NCBI GenBank assembly: GCA_030867685.1
Contig: JAQOWU010000007.1
Span: 1,798,001-1,862,000 of the forward strand
Direction of reading: 5' to 3'
DNA length: 64,000 nucleotides
DNA from: Wickerhamiella versatilis
Taxonomy: Eukaryota
Shown: piece after piece, positions 10,411 to 59,262 of the stretch
Layout: every line of letters starts with the position of its first letter
Position numbering within the stretch: the first letter of the stretch is position 1
The notes under the pieces: model-generated
Told to the model about the DNA's origin: nothing
Databases searched by the model: none
What the model saw: only the letters and a program-made list of their open reading frames with translations
Position numbers and translations under genes: made by a program

Positions 10411-12417
10411 ATGGTTCTAGGTATTAATCATACCAAGCGTGCCGCTAAGCATGTGGCCGAAAATAAGCCACATGCCAGGCGGACAGCCACTATGGGGCTA
10501 AGTGGCCGTCCACTACGTTGGACAATTACAGCATGCTCTGTCACGGCATTCTCATTGTTCGGTTATGACCAGGGTTTGATGGGTTCTATCATCACTGGTC
10601 TCCAGTTTGTCGAACAGGAGTTCAAACCTCTCAAATACTTTATTGCCAGTGAAGGAGAGACTTGTCCGTACCCGTCAAACCCCGATTACTCTCAGGCAAT
10701 GACTGGTAACCAGTGGGCAAATATGCTATTAACTGGTGACCCAGATGCTTCTAATCTCGATGTAGGCGCAGGTGCGAATACATACTATTGTGAAAAGGAA
10801 TCACGGCAACAGTCGGTTTTACAAGGTGGTGTCACATCGTCATATGACGTGGGATGCTTTTTCGGATCAATCTTCGTGTTCTTCTTTGGTGAAAGAATCG
10901 GACGCAAGCCGTTGGTTATTCTCGGCTGCTTCATTGTAATTGTTGGTGTGGTTATTTCCACCGCGTCTTATGGTCATGCCTGGGGTATTGGTCAGTTCAT
11001 TGTAGGTCGTGCCATTACCGGTGTTGGTAACGGTATGAATACAGCAACCATTCCTGTCTGGCAGTCTGAGGTATCACGACCCGAAATTCGTGGTCGGTTG
11101 GTGAATCTTGAAGGCTCTGTAGTGGCTATTGGCACCATGGTTGCGACCTGGTTCGACTACGGCCTCCATTGGATCCGTGGTTCGTCAATTGCCTGGCGAT
11201 TCCCTGTAGCACTTCAAGCTGTGTTTGCCTTGATTGTGATTATATGTGTACCCAACCTTCCAGAGTCCCCCCGTTGGCTTGTTTCGAAAGGCAGAATTGA
11301 GGAGGCCAGAACAGTCCAAGCAGCTTTGATGTCAATGGATCCTCATCACGAGATGATTGAAGATGTGATAGCTGTCAATATTGAGGAAGTCAAGAGGCAG
11401 GGATCGGCTGCTGATTTGAAGACATTGTTCACCAATGGTAAGGGTCAATACTTAAACCGTATGTTGATCGGTGCGTCTACACAGTTTTTCCAGCAAATTA
11501 CCGGATGTAACGCCGCTATCTATTATTCTACTGTCTTGTTCCAGAAAATGTACGCCGCTAAGGGCAAAACGGACATTCAGAATACTACCGATTTGCCCAT
11601 TCTTCTTGGTGGTGTATTCGGCTGTGTATATGCTGCATTTACCATTCTCAGTTTCATACTCGTAGACTGGGTCGGTAGAAGATGGCTCTTCTTCTGGGGT
11701 GCCGCGGGTCAAGCAATTTCGTTCTTCATCTCCATGGCATGCCTTGCCGCTTCCAGCTCCTATAACAGCAAGAAGGGTAAAGCAACAAATCAACAGGACA
11801 TTGATAAGTGGACCAACAAGGAAGTTAATAGTATGAAGGGTGGTATTGTTGGTCTCTACTTATTCATTGCTTGCTTTGGTACTTCCATCCTTGAACTTCC
11901 ATGGGTGTACCCACCGGAGATCAACCCACTTAAGACACGTACCCCTGCAACTGCCCTCTCGACGATGATGAACTGGCTGTGGAATTTCACTGTTGTCATG
12001 TTCACCCCAGTCTTTATTGACGAGTCGCAATGGGGTTGCTACTTGTTCTTTGCTATTATGAATATGCTCTGGTTGCCTGTAATTTATTTCTATTATCCTG
12101 AGACCGCTGGACGCAAACTTGAAGAGATTGACCTTATTTTCGCTCGTGCGCACGTTGAAGGTAAGTTCCCCTTCATGGTTGCGAGTGAGATGCCAGCACT
12201 TAGTGATGAGGAGATTATCCAGGAAGGACGTCGTCTGGGTCTTGGCCTGGTAGACAACGCTGGTAACCCACTTGATCGCCCTGACGCCAAGGAAGGCTCA
12301 GCTGAGGGAAGCGAGAATAAACGTAATTCTACCACTTCATCTATATCTGCTCTCAGCAACACGGGAGAAGGTAACAATCCAGAGGATTTTAATCCTGGCG
12401 CTGCGCAAAACGTCTAA
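10411..12417 (+). CDS. STL1: Stl1-like transporter (copy 2, identical protein to 6174-8180)
   Basis: Identical 668-aa translation. Confidence 0.88.
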   Translation: MVLGINHTKRAAKHVAENKPHARRTATMGLSGRPLRWTITACSVTAFSLFGYDQGLMGSIITGLQFVEQEFKPLKYFIASEGETCPYPSNPDYSQAMTGNQWANMLLTGDPDASNLDVGAGANTYYCEKESRQQSVLQGGVTSSYDVGCFFGSIFVFFFGERIGRKPLVILGCFIVIVGVVISTASYGHAWGIGQFIVGRAITGVGNGMNTATIPVWQSEVSRPEIRGRLVNLEGSVVAIGTMVATWFDYGLHWIRGSSIAWRFPVALQAVFALIVIICVPNLPESPRWLVSKGRIEEARTVQAALMSMDPHHEMIEDVIAVNIEEVKRQGSAADLKTLFTNGKGQYLNRMLIGASTQFFQQITGCNAAIYYSTVLFQKMYAAKGKTDIQNTTDLPILLGGVFGCVYAAFTILSFILVDWVGRRWLFFWGAAGQAISFFISMACLAASSSYNSKKGKATNQQDIDKWTNKEVNSMKGGIVGLYLFIACFGTSILELPWVYPPEINPLKTRTPATALSTMMNWLWNFTVVMFTPVFIDESQWGCYLFFAIMNMLWLPVIYFYYPETAGRKLEEIDLIFARAHVEGKFPFMVASEMPALSDEEIIQEGRRLGLGLVDNAGNPLDRPDAKEGSAEGSENKRNSTTSSISALSNTGEGNNPEDFNPGAAQNV

Positions 12418-13184: not shown

Positions 13185-15185
13185 ATGGTTCTCGGAATCA
13201 ATCATACTCGTCGGGCAGCTACGGCTGTCGCCGACAAGTATGACTTAGAGCGACCACATGCGAAGCGTACAGCCACCATGGGGCTTTCTGGGCGTCCCCT
13301 GCGGTGGACAATGACGGCTTGCTCAGTTACTGCATTTCAACTGTTCGGATATGACCAGGGGTTGATGAGCTCTATCATTACTTCGAAGCAATTTGTGGAT
13401 GAGCAGTTTAGATCTGTGCACTACTATAGTGTCCCCGATGGAACTTCTTCTTGTCCTGTCGAAGACTCTAAGTATGGAAACGGCTATAAGCCTTTCACCC
13501 TCTACAGTGATACTCTTTATTGTACTAGAACAACGCATATGCAGTCAGTATATGAAGGTGCTGTGACGGCTTGCTACGAGATTGGATGTTTTTTCGGCTC
13601 ACTGTTTGTGTTGGCGGTGGGAAATAGAACTGGACGCAAACCGCTGATTGTGCTTGGATGCTTGATCATCGTTATAGGTGGTATCATCTCGTCTGCGGCG
13701 TATAATGATAAGTGGGGGTTTGGTCAGTTTATAATTGGCCGAGTAACTTGTGGTGTTGGTAACGGTATGAATACCGCGACCATTCCTGTTTGGCAGTCTG
13801 AAGTTTCCCGACCAGAGATCCGGGGACGATTGGTGAATCTAGAGGGATCCGTGGTCGCACTTGGTACCATGGTTGCTTACTGGTTGACCTTCGGTCTGCA
13901 TTTCGTGGACACCTCTATTGCGTGGCGTCTTCCTGTAGCTCTTCAGTGTCTATTTGCCATTATCGTGTTTGTTTCCGTGATTTACCTGCCGGAATCACCC
14001 AAGTGGTTGGTAACGCAGGGTCGTATTGAAGAAGCTACTTCCGTTCAGGCGAGTCTCTTGTCGCTTGATGAAAATGATCAAGTTGTGCAGAATATGATCA
14101 CTGCAAGTATCGAGGAGACAGAGCGGGCTGGATCCGAGATGAGGTTCGCCGATCTTCTCAAGCAAGGTAAAGGTCAGTATCTAGCTCGCACTCTGATAGG
14201 TGCATCGAGCCAGTTCTACCAGCAATTTTCGGGATGTAATGCGGCTATTTACTATGCCACTGTGCTGTTTCAGAACATGCTTGCTCGTCAAAATATTCAG
14301 GCCTCACCCGAATCGGTAAACAATAGGAAGATAAATATTCCTATTTTGTTGGGTGCAGTTTTTGCTAGTGTTTATTTCATGTTCACGATACCTAGCTTCA
14401 TATTGGTAGACAAGGTTGGAAGACGTATCATGTTCTTGGTTGGTGCAGCTGGTCAAGCGGGGTCATTCTTTATCACTGTTGGCTGTCTAGCGGCCTCGGA
14501 TCATTCTGAGAGCTCGTCCAAAAAGTCAGGAATTTCGGATGCGATGAAATCTAAGTTGACTAGCAGGTCAGTAAATCAAATGAAGGGTGGTGCTGTAGGG
14601 TTGTTCTTGTTTATTTCATTCTTCGGTCTGTCAATTCTGGAACTGCCTTGGATCTATCCTCCGGAGATTAATCCCATGAAGACGCGAACTGCTGCTACTG
14701 CCGTTTCTACCTGCGCTAACTGGCTAGCCAATTACGCTGTGGTACAGTTCACAACGATCTTTATCAATAGGTCTGACTATGGCTGCTACTTATTCTTCGC
14801 TCTTATTAACCTTACATGGATCCCTCTGATTTTCTTCTGCTATCCTGAGACAGCTGGACGTAAGCTTGAGGAGATGGACATTATTTTCGCTCGTGCTTAC
14901 ATGGAGAACAGATATCCATTTGTTGTTGCAAGTGAGATGCCTTACCTCAGTGATCAGGAGATTAAGGAGGAAGCTATTCGGTTGGATCTTGGTGATGATG
15001 ACACCAAGAACCTCAGGGATGTCGGCTGGGGCTACCATAACAGAAAGCCTAGCCCAGACAGTGGTGAGGAGAGGAAACCAGCGTCATCTGATGGTGCCTC
15101 ATCCATCTCTGCACTGAGCCATGTGACAGAGAACCAGGAAACCCAACCAAGCGAGGCAACTCAGGATGTTTCCCAACAGGTATGA
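13185..15185 (+). CDS. Stl1-like transporter, diverged tandem paralog
   Basis: Same motifs (GYDQG, GNGMNTATIPVWQSE, LPWIYPPEINP) and shared MVLGINHT N-terminus; TATTTATAA at 13127. Confidence 0.88.
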   Translation: MVLGINHTRRAATAVADKYDLERPHAKRTATMGLSGRPLRWTMTACSVTAFQLFGYDQGLMSSIITSKQFVDEQFRSVHYYSVPDGTSSCPVEDSKYGNGYKPFTLYSDTLYCTRTTHMQSVYEGAVTACYEIGCFFGSLFVLAVGNRTGRKPLIVLGCLIIVIGGIISSAAYNDKWGFGQFIIGRVTCGVGNGMNTATIPVWQSEVSRPEIRGRLVNLEGSVVALGTMVAYWLTFGLHFVDTSIAWRLPVALQCLFAIIVFVSVIYLPESPKWLVTQGRIEEATSVQASLLSLDENDQVVQNMITASIEETERAGSEMRFADLLKQGKGQYLARTLIGASSQFYQQFSGCNAAIYYATVLFQNMLARQNIQASPESVNNRKINIPILLGAVFASVYFMFTIPSFILVDKVGRRIMFLVGAAGQAGSFFITVGCLAASDHSESSSKKSGISDAMKSKLTSRSVNQMKGGAVGLFLFISFFGLSILELPWIYPPEINPMKTRTAATAVSTCANWLANYAVVQFTTIFINRSDYGCYLFFALINLTWIPLIFFCYPETAGRKLEEMDIIFARAYMENRYPFVVASEMPYLSDQEIKEEAIRLDLGDDDTKNLRDVGWGYHNRKPSPDSGEERKPASSDGASSISALSHVTENQETQPSEATQDVSQQV

Positions 15186-32928: not shown

Positions 32929-34144
32929 ATGTCTTTCTACAAGCCACGACACCAGAAAATAAGCCCAGTTTACACTGGAGATTCTTGCTCACCTAACCCA
33001 CCATCATATAATCCATTCCAAGATAAGCGGTCGATCATTCTCTATCGGAGAGAATACTGCGTCCGTGCGAATATATACACCGGAGAATAGGACATGGTTC
33101 ACAAAAGGTGATGTAATTGCTGGTGTCGTCGTAATAAATATTCGGAGGGAAGTCCCAGTCGGCAAAATTACGGCTACTTTGAAATGCGTGGAGCACAACA
33201 AAGTTAGCCGAATTAAAGTGAAGGAAAGGTTGGGCACAACGGGAACTAGGGAAGTCAGGGTCGATAATGTAGAGAGATACGTGGGCGATCCTGTGCTTGT
33301 TGCAGATATTCGGAATCGCACGCCAGCATCACGAAAGCACGAATTCTATTTTCACGTTTCGATGCCGCACGAAATAAAAGTTATGCCCCCATCGTTCGAT
33401 AATTGGGAGCTCAGTTTTGGGCGGTGGGATTGGTATGGTGTGAATTGGCTTGTGGAGGTAGAGTTTGGTGGGCAAAATACGAAGCGACTTGAACCCGTAT
33501 CACAGAAGCTTCAGGTATTTCCTTTAGGTACTGAGCTCGTGAACAATGTCTACAGCAAAAAAAGTGTGCAAGGGTCTCTGGCGTTGCAGCTGGCGCCGCC
33601 AGCGAACAGGCGGGGCGTTCGCCGAATTCTCAATGTCGCTGAATACGGAAACGCTGTTGTAAAGTTGAATTTGTCGGCACCAAAATTTGCACAGGTAGGG
33701 AAATCTTTGAATGTTACGCTGGGAATAGAGAGTGGGCTCAGCGATGCGTTGCTCCTAGAACGCGTGTCAGTAAGGTTTTGCTCCGCTGCGAAGGCCTCTT
33801 CGGCGGATTGGAGAGGACGTAATGAATACGATGTGATTTTGGCTGAGTGGGAGCCCTATGCAATACTTCCTCAAGGACTATTGGACTTAACGCCCGAATT
33901 CCACCGCAACTTACAAACACCAACGCTCTGGTCCTGTGACTTTTCTACGGATACGCTTTCCGTGACGCACTTCATACGCTGCAATGTCAGAATTAGCGGT
34001 AAATGGTCCCGGCAAGCACACAGAGTGTTAAGTATACGTCAGAAATTAACCGTCGCTCCACCCTTCTTAGCTGTTGGGCAAAAGCCGGAAAAGCAGCCAG
34101 AATATCTACCGAATTATGAGCAAGCCATAGAAGGGCAACCCTGA
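32929..34144 (+). CDS. Alpha-arrestin-like Rsp5 adaptor; 5' end needs an intron or frameshift
   Basis: FTKGDVIAGVVVI arrestin-N start, HEFYFHVSMP..MPPSF, beta-rich body, C-terminal LPNY (L/PPxY). The main frame is open from 32963 without ATG; nearest ATG is 32929 in another frame. Confidence 0.65.
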
Positions 34145-40965: not shown

Positions 40966-42603
40966 TCAAGGTCTGCAGCGGCCAGAGAACCTAGGATAAA
41001 GAGTACAGTCCCTTACTGTGAAGCGATCACATAGCCAGGCAAGGATACGCTCGAGTCCCAGTCCGTAGCCACCATGCGGGAAAGAGCCATATTTACGCAG
41101 GTCTAGGAACCAGTAGTAAGGTGCTGTATCCATTCCCTCTCGCTTGAAGGCAGCAAGCATTTCGTCCAAATCCCAGGTACGCATGGAACCACCAACCACT
41201 TCACCGACATTAGGCATCAGGACGTCAACAGACTCGGTCACGCGAGGGTCATCCTTGCATTTAGGCATGTAAAAGCTCTTGATCTCCACAGGGAACCGGG
41301 TGAGAAGTATGGGCTCGTTGATGGTGTCCGTCATACGACGCTCCTCAGCTTCGGCGATATCATCACCAAACTCGAAGGGGCGGCCCTCAGGCGTCTTGAT
41401 ACCATGTTCATTCAGCCACTCAAGAGCCTCAATGTATGACATACGCCGGAACGGTACCTTTGGCGCCTTGAAATGAGGATTCAGTTGTTTGACCAATTCA
41501 GATACAATGGGGTCCGCCAAAATCTTGGCTATGACCCCAGTTATAAACTTCTCAATATGGTCAAGCATCTCATCAAAAGTCAGGAATCCCAACTCGGCCT
41601 CCACATGGGTGTACTCGCTTAGGTGACGTCTTGTATGTGACTTCTCGGCGCGGAAAGATTCCTGGATGCAGAACGCATCCCCAATGGCAGGAACACAGGT
41701 CTCGAGATAGAGCTGAGAGCTTTGAGTCAAGAATGCCGGCTCTCCATAGTAGTCGATGTTGAACAATGTCGAACCACCCTCAACCATAGACTGCACCATG
41801 CAGGGGGGAGTTACTTCTATAAGTTCAAGTTCGTGGTAGGTATCACGAATTGCCCGCAGCAATGCTGCCCTGACACGCATCACGGAACTCAACGTATCAC
41901 CACGAAGCGTGAGGTGGCGCAGGTCCAGAAGCAGGGATGGGTCTGCACCTTCTGTGACTCTATTGGTAAACGCATCATCACCGCCGGGTGCACTTCCAAT
42001 GACTTCATAGTAGTCGGCAACGAGTTCGTGTCCTCCTGGGGCGGACTTGCCATCTGGCAGTTCCTTCACAACCCCCTTAACTACAACTGATGTTTCACGG
42101 GTCAGCTGGCTGGTCTGATACGCATTAGCGAGATCTCCAGACAACACACACTGCAATAGTCCGGTACCATCCCTCAAGACAATGAACACGAGCCCTTTTT
42201 GAGAGCGCAGGCGGTGGATCCAGCCATATACTGCAGTCCGCTGGTCACGCTTCTCTTTAAGGTGAGAAATCTTCGCCTTCTTTGCCGCCGGAAGACTCTG
42301 GTCTTCCACAATCTTAATAGACTTTGAAGCCTCTATTTTAGCTGAGTCTTCGGCCTTCTTTTTCTCTGCCAGCTCTTGCTGCTTGGCCGTGGATGCTTGC
42401 TTCTTCACAAGCTGTTCTGCGCCCTTACGGGCCTTTTTCAGAGCACTTGGTGATATGGCATCCCAAGAACCATCTTCTTTGGCCACCTGGATTTCTTCAC
42501 TTTGAGTAGAAAAAATAGCAAATGCTGCCGTCTTGTAAGGTTTTTGCTGAGATCCTGCACCCACCTCATCAACTCCCTTTACGGGATCTACATAGGACGG
42601 CAT
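40966..42603 (-). CDS. DED81: Cytosolic asparaginyl-tRNA synthetase
   Basis: VEGGSTLF, LTQSSQLYLET, FRAEKSHTRRHLSEYTHVEAE, CTLYPRFSGRCRP. Confidence 0.97.
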   Translation of the reverse strand: MPSYVDPVKGVDEVGAGSQQKPYKTAAFAIFSTQSEEIQVAKEDGSWDAISPSALKKARKGAEQLVKKQASTAKQQELAEKKKAEDSAKIEASKSIKIVEDQSLPAAKKAKISHLKEKRDQRTAVYGWIHRLRSQKGLVFIVLRDGTGLLQCVLSGDLANAYQTSQLTRETSVVVKGVVKELPDGKSAPGGHELVADYYEVIGSAPGGDDAFTNRVTEGADPSLLLDLRHLTLRGDTLSSVMRVRAALLRAIRDTYHELELIEVTPPCMVQSMVEGGSTLFNIDYYGEPAFLTQSSQLYLETCVPAIGDAFCIQESFRAEKSHTRRHLSEYTHVEAELGFLTFDEMLDHIEKFITGVIAKILADPIVSELVKQLNPHFKAPKVPFRRMSYIEALEWLNEHGIKTPEGRPFEFGDDIAEAEERRMTDTINEPILLTRFPVEIKSFYMPKCKDDPRVTESVDVLMPNVGEVVGGSMRTWDLDEMLAAFKREGMDTAPYYWFLDLRKYGSFPHGGYGLGLERILAWLCDRFTVRDCTLYPRFSGRCRP

Positions 42604-42670
42604 ATTGAATCAGTCAATATTAGTCACTGGGTGGGTTCGCTTCTATCTACGCTGAGTCACTCAAAGTACC
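42604..42670. promoter_or_regulatory. 67-bp bidirectional promoter with Gcn4/AP-1 site TGAGTCA and near-matches
   Basis: TGAGTCA 42653-42659, TTAGTCA 42620-42626, TGAATCA 42606-42612. Confidence 0.6.
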
Positions 42671-44251
42671 ATGTCTGGAAAAGTTGAAAAAGCCACAAAG
42701 GATATGAGCCTGAAAGACAAGAAGAAGGATCAACAGCCAGCTTTGATTGGAATAACTTCTAAGAAGGAAGAAGACTTTTCCAACTGGTTTCAGCAGATTT
42801 GCTTGAAGAGTGAGCTGCTAGATTTCGGTGATGTCAGTGGCTGCTACGTTCTCCGTCCCCAGTCCTACGCTGTATGGGAGAGTATCCAAGAATTTTTTAA
42901 TGCAAAAATTAAGACTATTGGGGTGCGCAACGCATATTTCCCCATGTTCGTGTCTAACCGAGTATTGGAGAAAGAAAAGGACCATGTGGAGGGTTTTGCG
43001 CCCGAGGTGGCCTGGGTCACCCGTGCAGGGTCTTCTGAGCTTGAAGAGCCAGTTGCACTCCGCCCAACCAGTGAGACTGTGATGTATCCATATTATGCAA
43101 AATGGATTCGATCTCACCGTGACCTACCACTTCGGTTGAACCAGTGGAACAATGTTATCCGCTGGGAATTCAAGCACCCACAGCCGTTTTTGCGTACACG
43201 TGAGTTCCTCTGGCAAGAGGGCCACACCGCCCACCTTACGCGTGAGGGCGCTGAGGAAGAGGTCATGCAAATCCTGGACTTCTATTACAAGATCTATACC
43301 GATCTGCTTGCTGTTCCCATGATAAAGGGACGTAAGACTGATAGTGAAAAGTTTGCCGGATCTTTCTTTTCAATGAGTGTTGAGGGTTATATCCCTGGCA
43401 CGGGACGGGGTATCCAAGGTGCGACCTCGCATTGCCTGGGCCAGAATTTCTCAAAGATGTTCAACATCGTGGTCGAAGACCCGGAGAATCCTGAGCAGAA
43501 GCGGTTTGTTTGGCAGAACTCATGGGGATTCTCCACCCGTAGCATTGGTGTTATGATCATGGTCCACTCTGACAATAAGGGACTTGTTCTGCCGCCCCGT
43601 GTTGCGCAAACTCAGGCGGTAGTGATTCCTGTGGGCCTCACAAAGAACTTGGCGGAAGATAAACGTAAGGCAGTAAACGATGCCTCTAGCGTTATCACGT
43701 CGAAACTTATAGACGCTGGTGTTCGTGTGGATCTCGACGATCGTCTAAACTACAGCCCTGGATTCAAATTCAACGACGCCGAGCTGCATGGTGTCCCTCT
43801 TCAGATTGAAGTTGGTCCGCGTGATGTTGCCAACGAGGTTTGTGTAGTGAAGAGACGTGACGATGGATCTAAAGAAACAGTTAACATAGCAGATGCGTCT
43901 ACCCGCATCCCTGAGATCTTGAATGAGATGCATCACGCCCTCTATAACAAGGCTAAGGATGCTTTTGATGAGGCTGTTATCATGGTGAAGGATGTTGATG
44001 AGATGGCCCCTGAGCTCAATAAGAAGCACCAGCTTCTCGCTCCATTCTGCGGTAAAGAGGCTTGTGAGGACAACATCAAGGATTACACTCAGCGTAAATC
44101 TGCAGGCGAGGTTGTGGACGATAAGGCACCCTCCATGGGCGCCAAGACGCTATGCATACCCTTGGAGCAGCCTCCCCTCGAGCCGAACCAGAAATGTTGT
44201 GGTTGCGATGCGCCAGCCCAGTATTGGACCTTGTTCGGACGCTCCTACTAA
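42671..44251 (+). CDS. Cytosolic prolyl-tRNA synthetase (YHR020W ortholog)
   Basis: EKEKDHVEGFAPEVAWVT, LRPTSETVMYPYYAKW, FLRTREFLWQEGHTAH, QGATSHCLGQNF, C-terminal LFGRSY. Confidence 0.97.
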   Translation: MSGKVEKATKDMSLKDKKKDQQPALIGITSKKEEDFSNWFQQICLKSELLDFGDVSGCYVLRPQSYAVWESIQEFFNAKIKTIGVRNAYFPMFVSNRVLEKEKDHVEGFAPEVAWVTRAGSSELEEPVALRPTSETVMYPYYAKWIRSHRDLPLRLNQWNNVIRWEFKHPQPFLRTREFLWQEGHTAHLTREGAEEEVMQILDFYYKIYTDLLAVPMIKGRKTDSEKFAGSFFSMSVEGYIPGTGRGIQGATSHCLGQNFSKMFNIVVEDPENPEQKRFVWQNSWGFSTRSIGVMIMVHSDNKGLVLPPRVAQTQAVVIPVGLTKNLAEDKRKAVNDASSVITSKLIDAGVRVDLDDRLNYSPGFKFNDAELHGVPLQIEVGPRDVANEVCVVKRRDDGSKETVNIADASTRIPEILNEMHHALYNKAKDAFDEAVIMVKDVDEMAPELNKKHQLLAPFCGKEACEDNIKDYTQRKSAGEVVDDKAPSMGAKTLCIPLEQPPLEPNQKCCGCDAPAQYWTLFGRSY

Positions 44252-44455
44252 ACACGAGGAGAGCACGAGCTGTAAAAGAGGTTCAGCTTCGGTTTATATA
44301 GAAGCCTAAGGTCTTTTAAAAACATAATATGTGGAAACACAGCCTATAGTTGACCTATGTAGTTAGTTCTGGCTTTTCAGAAATTTGATGCAATTGTATT
44401 ACTGGAAAATATGAGAGAAGCGGAAGGGAAGGTTCACGGGGACGGTTATGCATAT

Positions 44456-44878
44456 CTATAGTTCCTCAAGCGCCTGCTTGATTTCCGCATTTCTTTGTTT
44501 AAGCTGGTCAACTAAAGAAATACTCCGTGCAACCTGTTCATTGAAGGTTCCCCGTAGCTCTGGGAGATCTGCATTGGTTCGCGAATTACTTCCAGTAATA
44601 CATAGAAGTCGTGACTGCTGTCCATGATCAAGTGCCTGCACTTGCAAACTGGCATCCACAACTTGCCATTCAGGAGATATTGACCGACAAGACTTTAAAA
44701 GGCGGCCGGTATCGTCAAGATCGCACAATACTGATATGTCCCCATTCTGTCGTTCTAACGCATCCAATTCAGGAGAAAACCCATCATCCTCATAAATATA
44801 GTGTACCTCGGGGTAAATTGTGGTCTTTCCCCCATCGATAGTGTTCTGCAGCACAACAAAGAAGTTCTCTTTTTCCAT
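44456..44878 (-). CDS. ATG31: Autophagy protein Atg31-like
   Basis: IYPEVHYIYEDD and SISPEWQV motifs, C-terminal helix LVDQLKQRNAEIK; divergent from SES1 as in S. cerevisiae (YDR022C/YDR023W). Confidence 0.75.
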   Translation of the reverse strand: MEKENFFVVLQNTIDGGKTTIYPEVHYIYEDDGFSPELDALERQNGDISVLCDLDDTGRLLKSCRSISPEWQVVDASLQVQALDHGQQSRLLCITGSNSRTNADLPELRGTFNEQVARSISLVDQLKQRNAEIKQALEEL

Positions 44879-44970
44879 CTGCACGTTGTAGACTCCCTGA
44901 TTAAATAATTAGTCAGTGCACCTTTCTCGTGGTAGTAGACACTGTGACAAGTTAATATTGACTAATACCT

Positions 44971-46326
44971 ATGCTTGACATTCAGTCATTTATTGAAGAA
45001 AAAGGAGGAAATCCAGAGGCCCTTAAGGCGAGTCAGCGCGCGCGTGGTGATAGCGTCGAGCTTATCGATGAAATTATTGCTGAGTATAAGGGCTGGACCC
45101 GTCTGCGGTTCCAGCTTGACGAGCTTAACAAGAAACAGAATGCATTGCAAAAGCAGATTGGAGCCAAGTTCAAGGCCAAGGAGGACCCCAAGGAGCTTCT
45201 TGCTCAGAAGGAAGAATTAGTCCAGGAAAAGGCCAGAGTTCAGGAGGAAGAGAAGGCCGCGGAAAGTCAAATGCGTGGGAAGGTGAACCTTGTTGGTAAT
45301 ATCGTGCATCCCAGCGTCCCTGTTAGTGACGATGAGGAGAACAACGAGCTCATCCGCACTTGGGCACCTAACGGGGAGGATCCTGCTGAGCGTAAGGTCA
45401 AGCTAAGCCATGACGAGGTCCTGACCCGTCTGAACGGATTCGATCCCGAGCGTGGTCAAAAGATTAACGGTCATCGTGGCTACTTCCTCCGCAACTACGG
45501 TGTGTTCTTGAACAATGCTTTGATTCAATTTGGCTTGGATATCCTTTTCAAGGAGGGATATGTGCCTCTTCAGGCTCCTGTCATGATGAACAAAGACATA
45601 ATGGCCCGGACTGCTCAACTCTCGCAGTTTGACGAGGAGCTCTACAAGGTTTACGATGGTGATGATGAGAAGTATCTTATCGCCACGTCTGAACAGCCTA
45701 TAAGTGCTTACCACTCTGGAGAGTGGTTTGAGAGTCCTGCCGAGCAGCTTCCCGTTCGCTATGCAGGCTACTCATCCTGCTTCCGTCGCGAGGCGGGATC
45801 CCATGGCAAGGATGCTTGGGGTATTTTCCGTGTACACGAGTTCCAGAAAATTGAGCAGTTCTGTCTCACTGAACCGGAAAAATCCTGGGAAGAATTCGAC
45901 GCGATGATCGCCCATGCTGAGCAGTTCTATCAGCAGTTGGAAATCCCATATCGCGTTGTTGCGATCGTCAGTGGTGAACTTAACAATGCTGCTGCAAAGA
46001 AGTATGATCTCGAGGCTTGGTTCCCATTCCAGCAGTCATACAAGGAGCTTGTGTCCTGCTCGAATTGCACGGATTACCAGTCGCGCAACCTCGAAATTCG
46101 TTGTGGTGTTAAGAAGATGAACGAACGGGAAAAGAAGTATGTGCACTGCCTAAATTCCACCCTATGTGCCACGGAGAGAGCCCTTTGCTGCATCCTCGAG
46201 AACTACCAGACAGATGACGGGCTCGTTGTACCCGAGAAGCTGCGTAAGTACATTCCTGGCGAACCTAAATTCCTTCCTTTCGTTGCTGAGCTCAAAAAGG
46301 AGAAGAAGGAGGGCAGTAAAAAATAA
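44971..46326 (+). CDS. SES1: Cytosolic seryl-tRNA synthetase
   Basis: MLDI start, YLIATSEQP, CFRREAGSHGKDAWGIFRVH, ELVSCSNCTDYQSR. Confidence 0.97.
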   Translation: MLDIQSFIEEKGGNPEALKASQRARGDSVELIDEIIAEYKGWTRLRFQLDELNKKQNALQKQIGAKFKAKEDPKELLAQKEELVQEKARVQEEEKAAESQMRGKVNLVGNIVHPSVPVSDDEENNELIRTWAPNGEDPAERKVKLSHDEVLTRLNGFDPERGQKINGHRGYFLRNYGVFLNNALIQFGLDILFKEGYVPLQAPVMMNKDIMARTAQLSQFDEELYKVYDGDDEKYLIATSEQPISAYHSGEWFESPAEQLPVRYAGYSSCFRREAGSHGKDAWGIFRVHEFQKIEQFCLTEPEKSWEEFDAMIAHAEQFYQQLEIPYRVVAIVSGELNNAAAKKYDLEAWFPFQQSYKELVSCSNCTDYQSRNLEIRCGVKKMNEREKKYVHCLNSTLCATERALCCILENYQTDDGLVVPEKLRKYIPGEPKFLPFVAELKKEKKEGSKK

Positions 46327-47984: not shown

Positions 47985-48605
47985 TCAGCTTGCACTCAAT
48001 ATGCGAAGCATTGATTTCATACGGTCCTCAGACATTCCGTATGCAAACGACCGATAATCAATGGGACGGGTGATATCACTTTGTCGCATCCCTGACGTTA
48101 GCGTGGATGAAACGTAGGGATCCTCGGGGCACTCATCAATTTCGGAATATTCTTCAAGCTCTGCAAGGTCATCAAGCCATCCAAGTACATGACGCCCATT
48201 AGGCTGGGGAGGGAGCACCTCGTACATCTGCTCACCATTGGCAGTAATGGCAAAAAATTCCAACGCCTGCACGTAGGCATCCGGAGATAATTTCACGAAC
48301 GCCAAATCGTCAAATATCAAGTGAGCAACCAGGGGTACATGGGTCCTGCCAGCAAACGTAAGCCCGCTCCATAACGCCTTCATGCAAACCGCAACACCAC
48401 CAAGCCTTCGTAAATATAGGCTATGGGGAGGAAGCTGAAACATGGGGTCAACGTACACACTGTAATTAGGGCAGTCCATGTCCGCACAATACACGGAATC
48501 GCAGTGTTTCTGACCCTCTGGTAAAACTTTCACCGGTTCATTCGTTGCACTCTCCGATGGAACCCGTTTCGTTCTTCGAGACGCCTTCTTTCGCGGCTTA
48601 GCCAT
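47985..48605 (-). CDS. Hypothetical protein (206 aa) with basic NLS-like N-terminus and Cys cluster
   Basis: MAKPRKKASRRTKR; HCDSVYCADMDC; no family recognised. Confidence 0.6.
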   Translation of the reverse strand: MAKPRKKASRRTKRVPSESATNEPVKVLPEGQKHCDSVYCADMDCPNYSVYVDPMFQLPPHSLYLRRLGGVAVCMKALWSGLTFAGRTHVPLVAHLIFDDLAFVKLSPDAYVQALEFFAITANGEQMYEVLPPQPNGRHVLGWLDDLAELEEYSEIDECPEDPYVSSTLTSGMRQSDITRPIDYRSFAYGMSEDRMKSMLRILSAS

Positions 48606-49128
48606 AATAACCGAGCTATGTACTAGAATTAGTCATGTAGTTTGGTGCTAAAATTCGAACACCCTGGCTCAGCCAACAGAGACCTTTATCTCCAGGGTAG
48701 AGGCGAATGGCATAATAAATACTTTGCTAATATATTCTTGATTCAGCAAAACTTTCAGCCGGGTTATTTACTCATAAATTAAGCTTTTGCAATTGAATAC
48801 TACAGGGAGCATCCATGAGAACGACTGGATGATAAAATTTTTTATATATGGCCGAAGTAAGCACGTTGCATATCTGTGACTCCTCCTCTCAAGCGATAGG
48901 GGCGCAGGTAATGAATTTCTCCCTGAGTGAGTGGGCACTAGGGTTATGCGTGATGACTGCGTCAGAGATAACACGTAAGCACGAGGGTTATATACAAGCA
49001 GAGTCTCTCGATATTGTCAAATATATTACCTAACTCGTTTTCGCTCTCAGCCGTGCACTGAGAGCCCATTTCGGAACAGACAGGTAATTACTAGACGAGT
49101 CGTCCCAGACCGCTTGTTTCTTTCTTAG

Positions 49129-49762
49129 AGCAGCGGTTTTTGAAGCAGAAGCGCCTTCCCCCAGCGTACTGGTGGTTACAGAAGAAGTTACAGAGTTCTT
49201 ACCCTTTTCTTCCTACGAACCCACTTTTGAACCTTTCGACAAACCGACTTTAGAAGACCAAGACTTTTTTAGCGGGTTTTCTGGATTTTTCGACTTTGAT
49301 TTACAATGCAATTTAATTGGTAACCAGCAACAACAATCCCCTTGTCTTTCAGACAATTCAACAGAATTGAACGATTCTGCATGTGGTAGCCCCCTTGGGC
49401 CTGATTACACGCCTCCAGAATCTGTAGGCGTGCAGGATGTCGATATCTCACCTGTTGTTCCGCTATGGAATCTTCCTCCTGTTGCTCATTGTCCACTACC
49501 GCCGCCGTCGCCAGCATCATCTGCATCTCCACCACAGCCAGCACTACAGCAGGCAGGAAGTCGAATTCCTTGCCAGGTTGGGGCGGTTGTGAAGAAGACG
49601 GATGATAAAGCGCGACAGCGGCGAATGCGCAACACTGAGGCAGCACGAAGAAGCCGTGGACGAAACAAGAAGCGAGTTGACGAACTAGAAACCCTCGTAG
49701 GCCGCCTGATGCATGAAAACCAGAATCTACGTCTCAAGATGGGTGAAAATTACAATATCTAA
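49129..49762 (+). CDS. GCN4: Gcn4/Cpc1-like bZIP transcription factor; start unresolved
   Basis: RRMRNTEAARRSR basic region plus zipper LETLVGRLMHENQNLR; acidic/Phe-rich activation-like N-part. Frame open from 49088; first in-frame ATG only at 49625. Confidence 0.75.
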
Positions 49763-50355
49763 TTTATATATATATTCTATAACCCAAATAAAGTTTACTT
49801 TTTTGTGGAACTTCTGACTGGTGTACAGCAACGTCGGAAAGCGGTGTAGTTGCTATTCAATATGTGGCATTGTGATGAAAGAGACTAATTTACCTTGGAT
49901 GATACGAGTGAGCTGAAGAAGGATAGCTCGCTGATGCTATGAGTATTAATCATCTATTTCATATTAATTGAAGTAGGATTCTAACTTTGGTTCTATTTAA
50001 CTCTCTACTTATTCCATAAAACTAGGTATTTTTCTGCTGGCTTTTTGCTACATCAAATAACAGCTTGGTTTCATCTCCAAGCAAAAAACACCAGACAACT
50101 GGCGATCTGCGTAAATTACCAATAAGTAATAAAACCTTCTTAGTTGTGCATTCGTACCATCTTCTGGATTTCTATCGATACAATTGAGCAAATTCCTTCG
50201 TTACTTTTGGCGAATGAAAATCCACAAATGGGTGAACATTTAAGACTAATTACGGCCAGATCACTCTAAGACCCGTTCTACATGCTTTTTGCACACAGGT
50301 ATCAAACCTTGTCTTAAATTTATATAAAAAGCAAGGACGGATAGATCGAAAAAGT

Positions 50356-51735
50356 ATGTCAACTGCGGATCTTGCTTCGGCTAGCGAAGGGGTTACCCTT
50401 CTGAAGCAGCTCATACCTGTAGTTGCAAGTCATAATAATTACAAGGGAGGTCCATGGTGGCAGAGTGGGATTGCTCCATTCATAAAGTTCTCACAGGAGC
50501 GAGGCCTCGCTGACAAGGACACGCTGAAATTAGTGGTGCCAGCCTTGCCCGGGCTATTTGGTGGATATCCATTTCCCTCTTGGAATCAAGGCGAGGAAGC
50601 AGCGAACGGAGTACTCATTGCTGTATTCTCCATACTTATGGTGGCCAACTTATACATATTCATTCGCAACCGAATCCGGAGCCAGCGATTCTATTTCTCG
50701 GTTGGCGTTGCTTTAGTTTGTGCGATGAAAGTGATTGGATTCGCATGCCGTCTCGCATGGTCACATGATATACTTGCCTTGAATGTGGGGATTGCGTCCG
50801 TTGTCTTCATTCAAGTCGCTCAGCTTGTACTGCTGGCCATGAACCTAGTGCTTGCACATCGCATATTTACTTGGCGACATCCAGAAACTGGAAACTCAAT
50901 TTGGGTGAATATATGCATGATCCAGATATACCTGATCGTATTAGTGGTAATAGCCATGGCAATCTTGGGCCAAGTTTTACCTTACCTATATTTCATGGAC
51001 CATCATCACTACAATATATGCCGCAATGTTGCCAAGGCTGCAGCTGTTTTAAACCTCTACTTCGCATCAATGCCATGCCAATTGCTCGTATTGGCCTATG
51101 CTTTACCTCCAGGCACGGTGATATCCTTGCTTGGGATAAATAAGATCATCCCGCCCGTGCATCAAGCATCCTGGATAAAGAGTGCGGGTATATTTTACTT
51201 TCCGGAACACGACTCACAGGTTTTTGTGAGCCCTCAGCATAAGCACACCATTCGCATTATGCCGTCCCGGGAACCGCCCGGCAAAGGATTTCACAAGGCC
51301 TTCCATGAGCCCATGCATCCCGAGAGTCCCCGTATAGCCGTCGCAGTCATCGCCGTCCTTGTCTCTAGCATTGTCCTTGTAGGAACAACCTGCTTCCGCG
51401 TAGCTGCCGTCTTCCACGGTGAAAATTACGGCACAACTCGCCCTGACAGCTCGGTAGATGTTAGCTACTGGCCCTGGCATCCATATGTCCAATTCATATT
51501 CTACGGTGGGGTAGAGGCTGCAGTCATTATTTGGTATCTGGTGATGCGGGTGGATTTACGCTTCTACATTCCAGAGATAACTGATATAGTGGAAGGGACC
51601 CCCAAGCGAAGGAAAACGACAATGCTAAGCAATGAGTCTAAAACAAGTGAAGAGGATGCAACTTATGAGCTAGAATCGAATATTACCACACTTTCTTCAA
51701 ATTGGGAGAAAAGCCAAAATTTCTTCTTCAATTAG
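50356..51735 (+). CDS. DUF3112/RTA1-like multi-pass membrane protein, paralog A
   Basis: FGGYP, KVIGFACRLAW, NLVLAHRIFTWRHP, RVDLRFYIPE. Confidence 0.75.
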   Translation: MSTADLASASEGVTLLKQLIPVVASHNNYKGGPWWQSGIAPFIKFSQERGLADKDTLKLVVPALPGLFGGYPFPSWNQGEEAANGVLIAVFSILMVANLYIFIRNRIRSQRFYFSVGVALVCAMKVIGFACRLAWSHDILALNVGIASVVFIQVAQLVLLAMNLVLAHRIFTWRHPETGNSIWVNICMIQIYLIVLVVIAMAILGQVLPYLYFMDHHHYNICRNVAKAAAVLNLYFASMPCQLLVLAYALPPGTVISLLGINKIIPPVHQASWIKSAGIFYFPEHDSQVFVSPQHKHTIRIMPSREPPGKGFHKAFHEPMHPESPRIAVAVIAVLVSSIVLVGTTCFRVAAVFHGENYGTTRPDSSVDVSYWPWHPYVQFIFYGGVEAAVIIWYLVMRVDLRFYIPEITDIVEGTPKRRKTTMLSNESKTSEEDATYELESNITTLSSNWEKSQNFFFN

Positions 51736-52549: not shown

Positions 52550-53920
52550 ATGGAGGGCCTTGGATCAATTACCGATGGTGTCTCTCTGTTCAAGACACTC
52601 ATACCTCTAGTTGCCAAGCAAACTGGTTACAAAGGGGATCCATGGTGGCAGAGTGGCGTCGCAGAATTCATAAAATTTGCGAAAGAGCAGGGACTTGAAT
52701 CTCCGGATACGCTGAAATTAACTGTTCCAGCCATGCCTGGACAATTCGGGGGCTATCCATTTCCATTATACAGCCAAAGTGAGCGGGCAGCGGATGGAGT
52801 ACTCATTGCTGTATTCTTCATCCTCATGGTAGCCCACTTCTACATATTCATTCGCAACCGAATCCGTGGCCAACGGTTCTACTTTTCCTTCGGGGTTGGT
52901 TTCGTTTGCATGATGAAAGTGATAGGATTCTCTTGTCGACTCGCATGGTCTCACGACGTTATGGACTTGAATGTAGGAATTGTTTCTATTGTCTTCATTC
53001 AAGTCGCTCAGCTCATACTGCTAGCAATGAACTTGGTACTTGCGCATCGTATCTTCACATGGCGACATCCAGAAACCGGTAACTCACTTTTTGTCAATAT
53101 ATACATGATACAGATATACTTGTACGTGTTAGTGGTGATAGCCATGGCGATAGTGGGCCAAAGCATACCGTTCCTCTACTTTTTGGATCATCATCATTAC
53201 AACATGTGTCGCAATGTCACAAAGGCTGCTGCTATTCTGAACCTCTTTTTTGCGACGATGCCATGTCAATTGCTGGCTCTGGTCTACATCCTACGTCCAG
53301 GTACGGTCATACCAGCCCTTGGAATAGGTGAGACGATTCCACCTGTGCACCAGGCATCCTGGATAAAGAGTGCGGGTATATTTTACTTTCCGGAACACGA
53401 CTCACAGGTTTTTGTGAGCCCTCAGCATAAGCACACCATTCGCATTATGCCATCCCGGGAGCCGCCCGGCAAAGGATTTCACAAGGCCTTCCATGAGCCC
53501 ATGCATCCTGAGAGTCCCCGTATAATCGTGGCAGTAATCACTGTCCTTGTCTCTAGCATTGTCCTTATAGGAACAACATGCTTCCGCGTAGCCGCCGTCT
53601 TCCACGGTGAAAACTATGGTACGCCCCGCCCAGATGGTACGGTGAAAGTCGGCTACTGGCCTTGGCATCCATATGTCCAATTCGTGTTCTACGGTGGGGT
53701 AGAGGCTGCAGTCATTATTTGGTACCTGGTGATGCGAGTAGATTTACGCTTCTACATTCCAGAGATAACTGATATAGTGGAAGGGACCCCCAAACGAGGA
53801 AAGAGAGCGATGTCAGATGATAGCAGTGGACCAGCTGAGGATGGAACCTATAATTTGGAGGAGAAAACTACAACACGTTCGTCGACGTGGGACAAAAGCC
53901 GGAATTTCTTGTTCAATTGA
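52550..53920 (+). CDS. DUF3112/RTA1-like multi-pass membrane protein, paralog B
   Basis: Colinear with paralog A; ATG at 52550; TATAAAA at ~52476. Confidence 0.75.
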   Translation: MEGLGSITDGVSLFKTLIPLVAKQTGYKGDPWWQSGVAEFIKFAKEQGLESPDTLKLTVPAMPGQFGGYPFPLYSQSERAADGVLIAVFFILMVAHFYIFIRNRIRGQRFYFSFGVGFVCMMKVIGFSCRLAWSHDVMDLNVGIVSIVFIQVAQLILLAMNLVLAHRIFTWRHPETGNSLFVNIYMIQIYLYVLVVIAMAIVGQSIPFLYFLDHHHYNMCRNVTKAAAILNLFFATMPCQLLALVYILRPGTVIPALGIGETIPPVHQASWIKSAGIFYFPEHDSQVFVSPQHKHTIRIMPSREPPGKGFHKAFHEPMHPESPRIIVAVITVLVSSIVLIGTTCFRVAAVFHGENYGTPRPDGTVKVGYWPWHPYVQFVFYGGVEAAVIIWYLVMRVDLRFYIPEITDIVEGTPKRGKRAMSDDSSGPAEDGTYNLEEKTTTRSSTWDKSRNFLFN

Positions 53921-57648: not shown

Positions 57649-59262
57649 ATGTTTGGCCAAGGGGCCACGGGAGGTGGATTCAGTTTTGGCGCTAAGCCAG
57701 CTGGCCAAACCCAGGGAACTGGCAGCATCTTTGGGCAACCAGCAGCAAATAATTCTCAGGGTGGTCTCTTTGGTAACCAGCAGTCTACAGCCCCGTCCAC
57801 GGGCCTGTTTGGCTCTCAGAACCAGCAGCAGCCAGCTTCTGGTGGGCTGTTTGGCGCTCAGAACCAGCCGAAACCAGGTGGCCTTTTCGGTACGCAAACC
57901 CAGCCACAGCAACCTTCTGGCGGTGGTCTTTTTGGCTCTCAAAACCAGCCAAAACCAGGTGGCCTATTCGGTACGCAGACTCAGCCACAGCAACCTTCTA
58001 GTGGCGGTCTTTTCGGCGCTCAGAACCAACAGCAGCCATCCGGTGGTCTCTTTGGTGCCCAGAATCAGCAACAACCGTCCGGTGGGCTTTTTGGTGCTCA
58101 AAACCAGCAGCAGCCTGCTTCGGGTGGGCTCTTTGGTTCTCAAAACCAACAACAACCTGCTTCGGGTGGGTTATTTGGCAACCAAGATCAGCAGAAACCA
58201 GGTGGTTTGTTTGGCTCGCAGACTCAACAACAGCCGTCTGGCGGCCTCTTTGGCAGTAAACCGCCCCAGCAGCCATCCGGTGGCCTATTCGGCTCTCAAA
58301 ATCAGCAACAGCAGCAGCAACCGTCTGGTGGACTATTTGGCTCTCAAACCCAGCAGAAGCCCGGTGGCTTATTTGGTAGCTCAACGCCAACACAGCCTTC
58401 TACCGGCGGACTGTTTGGAAACCAGACACAGCAACCGTCTGGTGGTCTTTTCGGTAATCAAAATCAGCAGCCATCCGGTGGTCTGTTCGGCTCCCAGAAC
58501 CAGCAACAGCAGCCGTCCGGTGGGCTTTTCGGCTCCCAAAACCAGCAACAGCCTTCTGGTGGTCTTTTCGGTTCGCAGAATCAAACACAACCCTCAGGCG
58601 GCTTATTTGGCTCTCAAAACCAGCAGCAGCCGTCTGGTGGCCTCTTTGGAGCCCAAAATCAACAGCAGCAGGCTCAACAACAGCAGCAAGGTCAGCAGCA
58701 GCAAATCACACCTTTCACGCGTCCTATTGATTTGCCTGAACCCTATCAAAAGGAACTTGAAGCGATTGACACATATATTGCGCAACAAAGTCGGCTCGGT
58801 GAGACTATCCAGGCCTCCATGGATTCCCATCGTGAATTGGTAGAGAGCGTTCCTCGTGATGTTAGTCTTCTTCATCATCGTCTGATATCGGCCAAGGAAA
58901 CATTAAAATTTGATGATGAGCAGCTCCGACTCTTGAAGTCTATCTCGGACACAGGCTTCTCAGATGTGGAACGCTTTCGTGATGTCCTGGCAACTACCTG
59001 GAGCGATCAAGACCGCCGGGTCGATCGCCTCACACCATACTTCCAGCGAAGGCTTAAGGAATGTCATTCGCGCCTCGAGCAGCTTGGAGCGGCAGTTCAT
59101 GATGTCAATCAAGGCATAACTGTTCTAGAGACGAAGACACCGACTCCACCAAACCCATCGACTGTTGTTGGTGCACTTAGAGATGAATACAATTATTTCA
59201 TGAGCTTAAGTGACCGTGTGGCTGAACTACATCAGAATGTTGAACAATTGGGCCGGGGTTGA
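57649..59262 (+). CDS. NUP49: GLFG nucleoporin Nup49
   Basis: Over 20 GGLFG repeats with Q-rich spacers, then ITPFTRPIDLPEPYQKELEAIDTYIAQQ coiled-coil region. Confidence 0.85.
   Translation: MFGQGATGGGFSFGAKPAGQTQGTGSIFGQPAANNSQGGLFGNQQSTAPSTGLFGSQNQQQPASGGLFGAQNQPKPGGLFGTQTQPQQPSGGGLFGSQNQPKPGGLFGTQTQPQQPSSGGLFGAQNQQQPSGGLFGAQNQQQPSGGLFGAQNQQQPASGGLFGSQNQQQPASGGLFGNQDQQKPGGLFGSQTQQQPSGGLFGSKPPQQPSGGLFGSQNQQQQQQPSGGLFGSQTQQKPGGLFGSSTPTQPSTGGLFGNQTQQPSGGLFGNQNQQPSGGLFGSQNQQQQPSGGLFGSQNQQQPSGGLFGSQNQTQPSGGLFGSQNQQQPSGGLFGAQNQQQQAQQQQQGQQQQITPFTRPIDLPEPYQKELEAIDTYIAQQSRLGETIQASMDSHRELVESVPRDVSLLHHRLISAKETLKFDDEQLRLLKSISDTGFSDVERFRDVLATTWSDQDRRVDRLTPYFQRRLKECHSRLEQLGAAVHDVNQGITVLETKTPTPPNPSTVVGALRDEYNYFMSLSDRVAELHQNVEQLGRG

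Follow-up and report, generated by a model that had tools for sequence, protein, structure and literature searches.

An expressed Gcn4-type bZIP gene of Wickerhamiella versatilis without an in-frame AUG ahead of its DNA-binding domain

A bZIP gene and its transcript

We analyzed a stretch of 64,000 nucleotides from Wickerhamiella versatilis (assembly GCA_030867685.1, contig JAQOWU010000007.1, positions 1,798,001 to 1,862,000 of the forward strand). This whole stretch is called the window, and positions are counted from its first letter. On its plus strand lies a bZIP gene whose frame is open from 49088 to 49762 (224 codons, TAA at 49760–49762), as translation confirmed. The proposed coding sequence occupies 49169–49762, with 197 codons from a CTG or 196 from the GTG that follows it, plus the TAA, and is supported by the open frame, by an excess of synonymous changes and by the full-length similarity to a sister-species protein. 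The data show an unspliced transcript, a missing AUG, purifying selection on the N-terminal region and a DNA-binding domain of Gcn4 type. The start codon we infer: the gene probably depends on obligate initiation at a non-AUG codon, without the GCN4-type control by upstream open reading frames (uORFs).

The C-terminal part of the frame encodes the bZIP domain (49601–49732, plus strand). It was recognized by Pfam bZIP_2 (E 3.7e-11, 43.4 bits with a cut-off of 22.3; residues 171–214 of the translation from 49091) and by bZIP_1 (E 1.1e-07, 32.2 bits with a cut-off of 27.6), and within it a basic region of Gcn4 type, RNTEAARRSR, precedes a short zipper (about three heptads). A comparison with all solved structures (E up to 0.01) returned four matches, and all four were GCN4 chains (best match 2dgc_A, E 4.2e-06). 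RNTEAARRSR, which carries the signature N-x2-AA-x2-SR, is identical between the window protein and the GCN4 chains in this alignment. A first-pass annotation, made from the letters alone, had called the gene Gcn4-like. For the DNA-binding domain this name holds, and judged by its residues the domain is of Gcn4 type. Because of this type, the protein is expected to bind TGACTCA-like sites. The N-terminal region at 49175–49320 is acidic and Phe-rich, EEVTEFLPF...DFFSGFSGFFDFDL, and its motifs are common to a related protein, P0004. Its composition makes it a presumed activation domain.

Reads of three RNA runs (X21, X22 and X24) and contigs of a related organism, organism B (X18), were mapped onto 48400–50000, with joints reported at a threshold of 5%. 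The RNA runs carry the same species label as a run that contains the window completely, and the strain that they represent (the RNA strain) is about 3% different from the window. The reads outline an unspliced, polyadenylated bZIP messenger RNA (mRNA) of about 780 nt at 49019–49805 on the plus strand. Read depth is no higher than about 1 across 48724–48993 and then reaches about 130–480 (both directions summed) at 49048–49101. In the poly(A) run X24, tagged 5′ ends were located at 49019 (124 reads) and 49023 (19 reads), and 80 molecules start at 49023. The loose-letter consensus of X24 resembles the sequence of a SMART-type template-switch oligo. Fragments of X21 and X22 start at 49034–49048, and the organism B contig starts at 49034. 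The 3′ ends cluster at 49791–49801, with an AATAAA at 49787–49792 just before the mapped ends, and depth is below 1 from 49804 on. In the sampled RNA, the mRNA of the bZIP gene is abundant, intron-less and polyadenylated.

A divergent gene lies upstream on the minus strand (47985–48624). It is expressed at a depth of 20–60 and contains a 215-codon frame with no Pfam family. The 5′ ends of its mRNA, marked by the reverse complement of the X24 tag, map to 48619–48624, and about 395 bp of promoter are common to the two genes. This divergent promoter (48625–49018) is untranscribed, with an RNA depth of 0 to about 5. It contains the short open reading frames (ORFs) that the first-pass annotation had listed as possible uORFs, together with splice-like strings at 48857 and 48975.

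The annotation had further proposed that splicing might join one of these uORFs to the main ORF. The short ORFs do exist as strings (48707, MA; 48815, MRTTG; 48829, 16 aa; 48946, 10 aa; 48848–49033, 61 aa), but they do not stand as uORFs, because the cap sites map to 49019–49023 and all of them are upstream of the mRNA. The splice-like strings GTAAGC, CCTAAC and GTAATT are also present; however, two of the three signals lie in the untranscribed promoter, and 49084–49128, which is in the mRNA, is not spliced. No splice joint was found in 48400–50000, either in the three RNA runs or in the organism B contigs, and read depth is continuous through the proposed intron at 49084–49128. The model in which a uORF is spliced to the main ORF was rejected on the absent joints and the absent depth over the uORFs, which contrasts with the 130–480 seen downstream. 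A constitutive intron that would give an ordinary AUG start was likewise not found when the read junctions of the three runs were checked.

A further explanation is that the sampled conditions missed an AUG that, for instance during amino-acid starvation, is brought in by splicing or by a transcription start further upstream; ATG 48946, by way of two introns, is an example. The required strings exist, the annotated join is arithmetically in frame, and the RNA consists of three runs only, of unspecified growth conditions. This explanation is improbable. In addition to the missing joints and depth, the mRNA of the minus-strand neighbour, starting at 48619–48624, leaves only the shared promoter as space. 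Removing the 45-nt segment 49084–49128 exposes no AUG in the mapped mRNA, and a frame-0 TAA stands at 49031–49033. A 7-nt insertion in organism B, placed directly behind 49166, would disrupt any reading frame that runs in from further upstream.

Missing AUG and selection on the N-terminal region

A scan of every ATG from 48600 to 49800 found no ATG start on the plus strand between 48953 and 49306. It bears out two statements of the first-pass annotation, that no ATG occurs in 48956–49305 and that the first in-frame ATG, at 49625, lies in the basic region. The ATG-free gap of 353 nt is the fourth longest of 1123 such gaps in the window. With an expectation of about 6.1 ATGs per 350 nt, the Poisson P of an ATG-free gap is about 0.002. 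The longest such gap, of 1170 nt (57649–58819, plus strand), is inside an FG-repeat nucleoporin gene, in a low-complexity coding region.

In the bZIP mRNA, the first ~287 nt are without an AUG, and no in-frame AUG occurs upstream of the basic region. The first AUG (49306–49323) is out of frame and opens five codons, MQFNW, before a stop. In total, five out-of-frame ATGs precede 49625: 49306 (5 codons), 49381 (2), 49437 (51), 49465 (46) and 49602 (28). The first in-frame ATG (49625–49627) encodes the M of RRMRNTEAARRSR. No ATG is created by the four changes of the RNA strain in the leader or by the changes of organism B.

An assembly or read error could be suspected to hide an AUG, and the annotation had raised it. 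This suspicion is effectively refuted. No difference is listed for the CTG-GTG at 49169–49174 in the RNA (three runs, each about 180–200 reads deep there) or in the independent organism B contig. The same ORF is on record as called from GTG in P0003 (from 6 contigs) and P0002 (from 4 contigs), and at least half of the words of the stretch are present in 17 sequencing runs. RNA editing or a sequencing error as the supplier of an AUG was also excluded, as the RNA reads keep CUG GUG at that depth.

Among the 39 stop-to-stop frames of at least 150 aa in the window, six contain no Met at all or reach their first one only after more than 40 codons. Four of these six overlap a longer ORF, and the other two are the bZIP gene and an arrestin-like gene. 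Overlapping frames aside, pervasive use of non-AUG starts was not seen in these 39 frames. The arrestin-like gene (32929–34144, plus strand) matches Pfam Arrestin_N (E 3.7e-07) at residues 37–149 of the frame 32963–34141, which has its first in-frame ATG only at 33362. Another frame is opened by an ATG at 32929; this ORF of 53 codons contains a PPSY motif and overlaps the main frame to 33088. Both frames read I-Y-T across a TA run near 33070–33080. This arrangement suggests a frameshift in the TA run, whether it stems from an indel or an error of assembly, marks a pseudogene or is programmed.

Comparing the window with the RNA strain provided coding evidence ahead of the first in-frame AUG. 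Among the listed single-base differences in 49172–49600, 12 are synonymous and 6 non-synonymous in the main frame, where a synonymous share of about 0.24 is expected (binomial P 1.4e-4). The other two frames gave 4:14 and 1:17. Over the full coding sequence (49169–49762), the ratio is 13:8 (P 2e-4), with 4:17 and 1:20 in the other frames, and the stretch 49175–49315 holds five synonymous changes and one non-synonymous change. The region before the first in-frame AUG is coding and under purifying selection. An AUG is absent from both haplotypes and thus played no part in this selection. The first-pass annotation had allowed for an unexpressed pseudogene free of such selection; the abundant mRNA and the synonymous excess speak otherwise.

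The protein has relatives that share its whole length. A full scan of 1.84 billion representative proteins (E up to 0.001) yielded 25 proteins. The second best match, P0004 (176 aa, E 8e-33), is 51% identical across the whole ORF. Its surroundings point to a sister species with the same gene neighbourhood, in which the neighbouring seryl-tRNA synthetase (SerRS) is 94% identical to that of the window. A profile search for the family retrieved 8 proteins among 8000 scored candidates, none of them named, and a word search with a single protein retrieved 1 of 408. At the position of M 49625, P0004 has Q and the other five members of the family alignment (A1) have A. By this alignment, the internal AUG is not a conserved start.

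It is also conceivable that the full-length protein is not made, either because the gene recently lost its ATG and is decaying or because only a bZIP-only peptide of 45 aa is translated from AUG 49625. This AUG is the first one in frame, and its product would retain the zipper and the greater part of the basic region. The start of the sister species could be a true ATG, and the bZIP gene evolves fast, with 51% identity against 94% for the neighbouring SerRS. Such an account is nevertheless unlikely. The synonymous excess in the N-terminal region arose between two haplotypes that were both already without ATG, neither the window nor the RNA strain, organism B or P0004 shows a broken ORF, and the abundance and polyadenylation of the mRNA do not fit decay. 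The bZIP-only peptide is further opposed by the five out-of-frame AUGs ahead of 49625 and by the Q and A residues found at this position in the relatives.

Candidate start codons and the leader

The proposed tandem initiation codons are the CTG-GTG pair at 49169–49174 on the plus strand. CTG 49169 and GTG 49172 are in frame, as had been annotated. The frame contains no other near-cognate codon between the stop at 49085–49087 and ATT 49316, which reads AAT in the RNA strain. The pair is invariant in three haplotypes. In the window the context of the CTG is gtaCTGg, with G at −3 and G at +4. The Kozak consensus derived from the start contexts of 23 window ORFs is weak (A at −3 in 8 of the 23), and context arguments carry little weight here. 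The 7-nt insertion of organism B leaves the downstream ORF intact and, because it lies directly behind 49166, gives the frame upstream an unrelated peptide to encode. The predicted N-termini of all eight A1 family members align at 49169–49175, and a shared acidic, aromatic motif follows.

Because the mRNA has no AUG in its first ~287 nt and none in frame before the basic region, the full-length protein most likely comes from the CUG or GUG. Scanning 43S ribosomes would initiate with Met-tRNAi at the tandem CUG 49169 and GUG 49172. In this way, an expressed intron-less gene of the Wickerhamiella/Starmerella clade would yield a protein of about 196 aa, acidic and Phe-rich at its N-terminus and with a Gcn4-type bZIP at its C-terminus. 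The high abundance of the mRNA could offset the low efficiency of near-cognate starts. In reporters of Saccharomyces cerevisiae ALA1, CTG can support about 50% and GTG about 20% of the initiation of ATG in a favourable context (PMC2909995). Of the two routes that the first-pass annotation had offered, non-AUG initiation is supported indirectly, and the splicing of a uORF, with no joints and no depth over the uORFs, is not.

Several points weigh against initiation at this pair. The sequence context falls short of the ideal, as C stands at −3 of the GTG and, in organism B, of the CTG too. A downstream hairpin, of the kind that could boost non-AUG initiation, was sought and is not significant (z −0.49; an equal or better fold in 56 of 200 shuffles). 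In P0002, P0003 and P0004 the initial M reflects gene callers of prokaryote type, which translate a GTG or TTG start as Met; P0003 is the ORF of the window itself, with M standing for GTG 49172. Because the callers are of this type, the starts of database proteins are not evidence of initiation. The sister species behind P0004 may have a true ATG start. Two metagenome scans for the start-codon DNA of relatives gave 174 and 59 pattern matches, and none of them passed tblastn. Upstream of 49169 there are one synonymous and three non-synonymous single-nucleotide changes (P 0.68), too few to mark a coding boundary on their own and uninformative in this respect. Five less-supported differences lie beyond those listed and counted above, including one of nine in the organism B contig. 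With three RNA runs sampled, another transcription start site could be used under starvation.

Gene models of relatives vary at the N-terminus. Several members of the protein cluster start at Leu or Val codons of relatives, and P0005 starts at a Leu codon one residue after the start of P0028. The NCBI model of the Wickerhamiella sorbophila homolog (PRT53201.1) has 106 aa and starts at an internal Met; the proteins P0039, P0010, P0040 and P0008 represent W. sorbophila and its relatives. Relatives called from Logan contigs are 211–241 aa long, with their N-terminus aligned with that of the window protein. As a hint taken from gene callers, loss or turnover of the start codon may be common in this bZIP family.

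The 5′ leader (49019–49168, plus strand) is about 135–150 nt long, free of AUG and thus of AUG uORFs. Its segment 49019–49139 has no listed difference in the three RNA runs or in the organism B contig; synonymous divergence in the coding sequence is about 9%. A cap-proximal stem-loop was predicted at 49025–49088, with the outer arms ATTACCT and AGGTAAT and an inner 8-bp stem, GCTCTCAG/CTGAGAGC. It folds at −19.8 kcal/mol (z −2.90), and 0 of 200 shuffles fold as well, while the whole region 49019–49320 folds at z −1.21. The stem-loop has no covariation because its sequence does not vary. Its arms are the strings that had been taken as the splice signals CCTAAC and GTAATT. A search of Rfam (E up to 1) over 48900–49900 gave no matches. 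Behind the invariant segment, the out-of-frame triplet at 49140–49142 differs among the haplotypes (window TTG, organism B TTC, RNA strain ATC) and is ATG in none of them. A path by way of the TTC of organism B avoids ATG and, as a single case, fits selection against an upstream out-of-frame AUG.

The invariant leader and its stem-loop, which outperformed all 200 shuffles, may carry a special element, and this would favour some other unconventional start: a codon that is not near-cognate, an internal entry site, or a near-cognate codon in another frame combined with a frameshift. Organism B moreover has an ACG at 49095 in frame with the ORF. We regard such a start as very unlikely. Against a special element stands the empty Rfam search. 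The peptide upstream is entirely different between the window and organism B, and the N-termini of the family align at 49169–49175, at the CTG-GTG pair.

Because the mRNA has no AUG uORF, delayed reinitiation of the GCN4 type cannot operate on it. The departure from canonical GCN4 control that had been annotated is therefore supported by the mapped mRNA. Beyond obligate non-AUG initiation itself, we tentatively put forward a broader proposal, which is speculative. Reinitiation after uORFs would have been replaced in this lineage by the obligate tandem CUG-GUG start. Its output would be set by the stringency of start-codon selection (the balance of eIF1 and eIF5, and eIF2 status), modulated by the invariant stem-loop at 49025–49088 and raised by stress through relaxed start selection.

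The window as a whole is gene-dense, with 24 uninterrupted ATG ORFs of at least 250 aa. Three adjacent aminoacyl-tRNA synthetase genes occupy 40966–46326, namely those for the asparaginyl (40966–42603, minus strand), prolyl (42671–44251) and seryl (44971–46326) enzymes. The best named matches of the window SerRS are those of W. sorbophila (79% identical) and Starmerella bacillaris (77%), which places the DNA in a budding yeast of their clade. Four ORFs of about 667 aa are tandem paralogs (2–2002, minus strand; 6174–8180; 10411–12417; 13185–15185). Two genes for DUF3112 membrane proteins (50356–51735 and 52550–53920) are also tandem paralogs.

Comparison with known systems

GCN4 is the classic example of a gene whose translation is controlled by upstream ORFs, and budding yeast is regarded as strict in the selection of AUG. 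With S. cerevisiae GCN4 and Neurospora crassa cpc-1, the window gene shares the RNTEAARRSR basic region and the order of an acidic, hydrophobic N-terminus followed by a C-terminal bZIP. Its zipper, of about three heptads, is short, unlike those of GCN4 and cpc-1. GCN4 and cpc-1 have long leaders (more than 700 nt in cpc-1), AUG uORFs and an AUG start for the main protein, whereas the window gene has a leader of about 150 nt and none of these. In N. crassa cpc-1, conserved in-frame near-cognate codons only add N-terminal extensions, upstream of the AUG start and beside uORF control (PMC5487733). The same paper, Ivanov et al. 2017, describes the Saccharomycotina GCN4 homologs examined there as without potential for near-cognate extensions (PMC5487733). 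For Starmerella bombicola, two Gcn4-like bZIP genes are reported, GME483 and GME5 ('Gcl') (PMC8959766). Judged by SerRS similarity, this yeast is of the same clade as the window. In open-access papers and bioRxiv we found no description of an obligate non-AUG Gcn4-type regulator in this clade.

The proposed mechanism would resemble near-cognate starts in S. cerevisiae. ALA1 uses two adjacent ACG codons, like the CTG-GTG proposed here. In both ALA1 (ACG) and GRS1 (TTG), scanning ribosomes start at near-cognate codons, and in those reporter contexts CTG and GTG work as well (PMC2909995). In ALA1 and GRS1, however, the non-AUG start produces a minor mitochondrial isoform and a downstream AUG the main protein, whereas the window gene has no AUG-initiated functional isoform. 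Some metazoan proteins are made from a non-AUG codon only, for example EIF4G2/DAP5 from GUG, and C/EBP alpha and beta have isoforms from a CUG, an AUG and an internal AUG. As with EIF4G2/DAP5, the main ORF of the window gene would be wholly dependent on a near-cognate start, but kingdom and family differ. Like C/EBP, the window gene has a bZIP mRNA that could yield two forms, a long one from a weak upstream start and one with only the DNA-binding domain from an in-frame AUG further downstream. A short isoform of this kind is unlikely as a conserved feature, because AUG 49625 is not conserved in the sister species.

If obligate non-AUG initiation holds, the gene would provide a natural test bed within Saccharomycotina for the efficiency and regulation of near-cognate initiation. 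It would also expose a systematic blind spot of annotation, as models restricted to AUG starts would cut such genes short or overlook them. A possible case is the W. sorbophila homolog, for which NCBI has a model of 106 aa. If the turnover of start codons is real, several Wickerhamiella and Starmerella species may share the non-AUG trait. In contrast to cpc-1, the non-AUG start would be the only route to a functional protein, and uORF control is absent.

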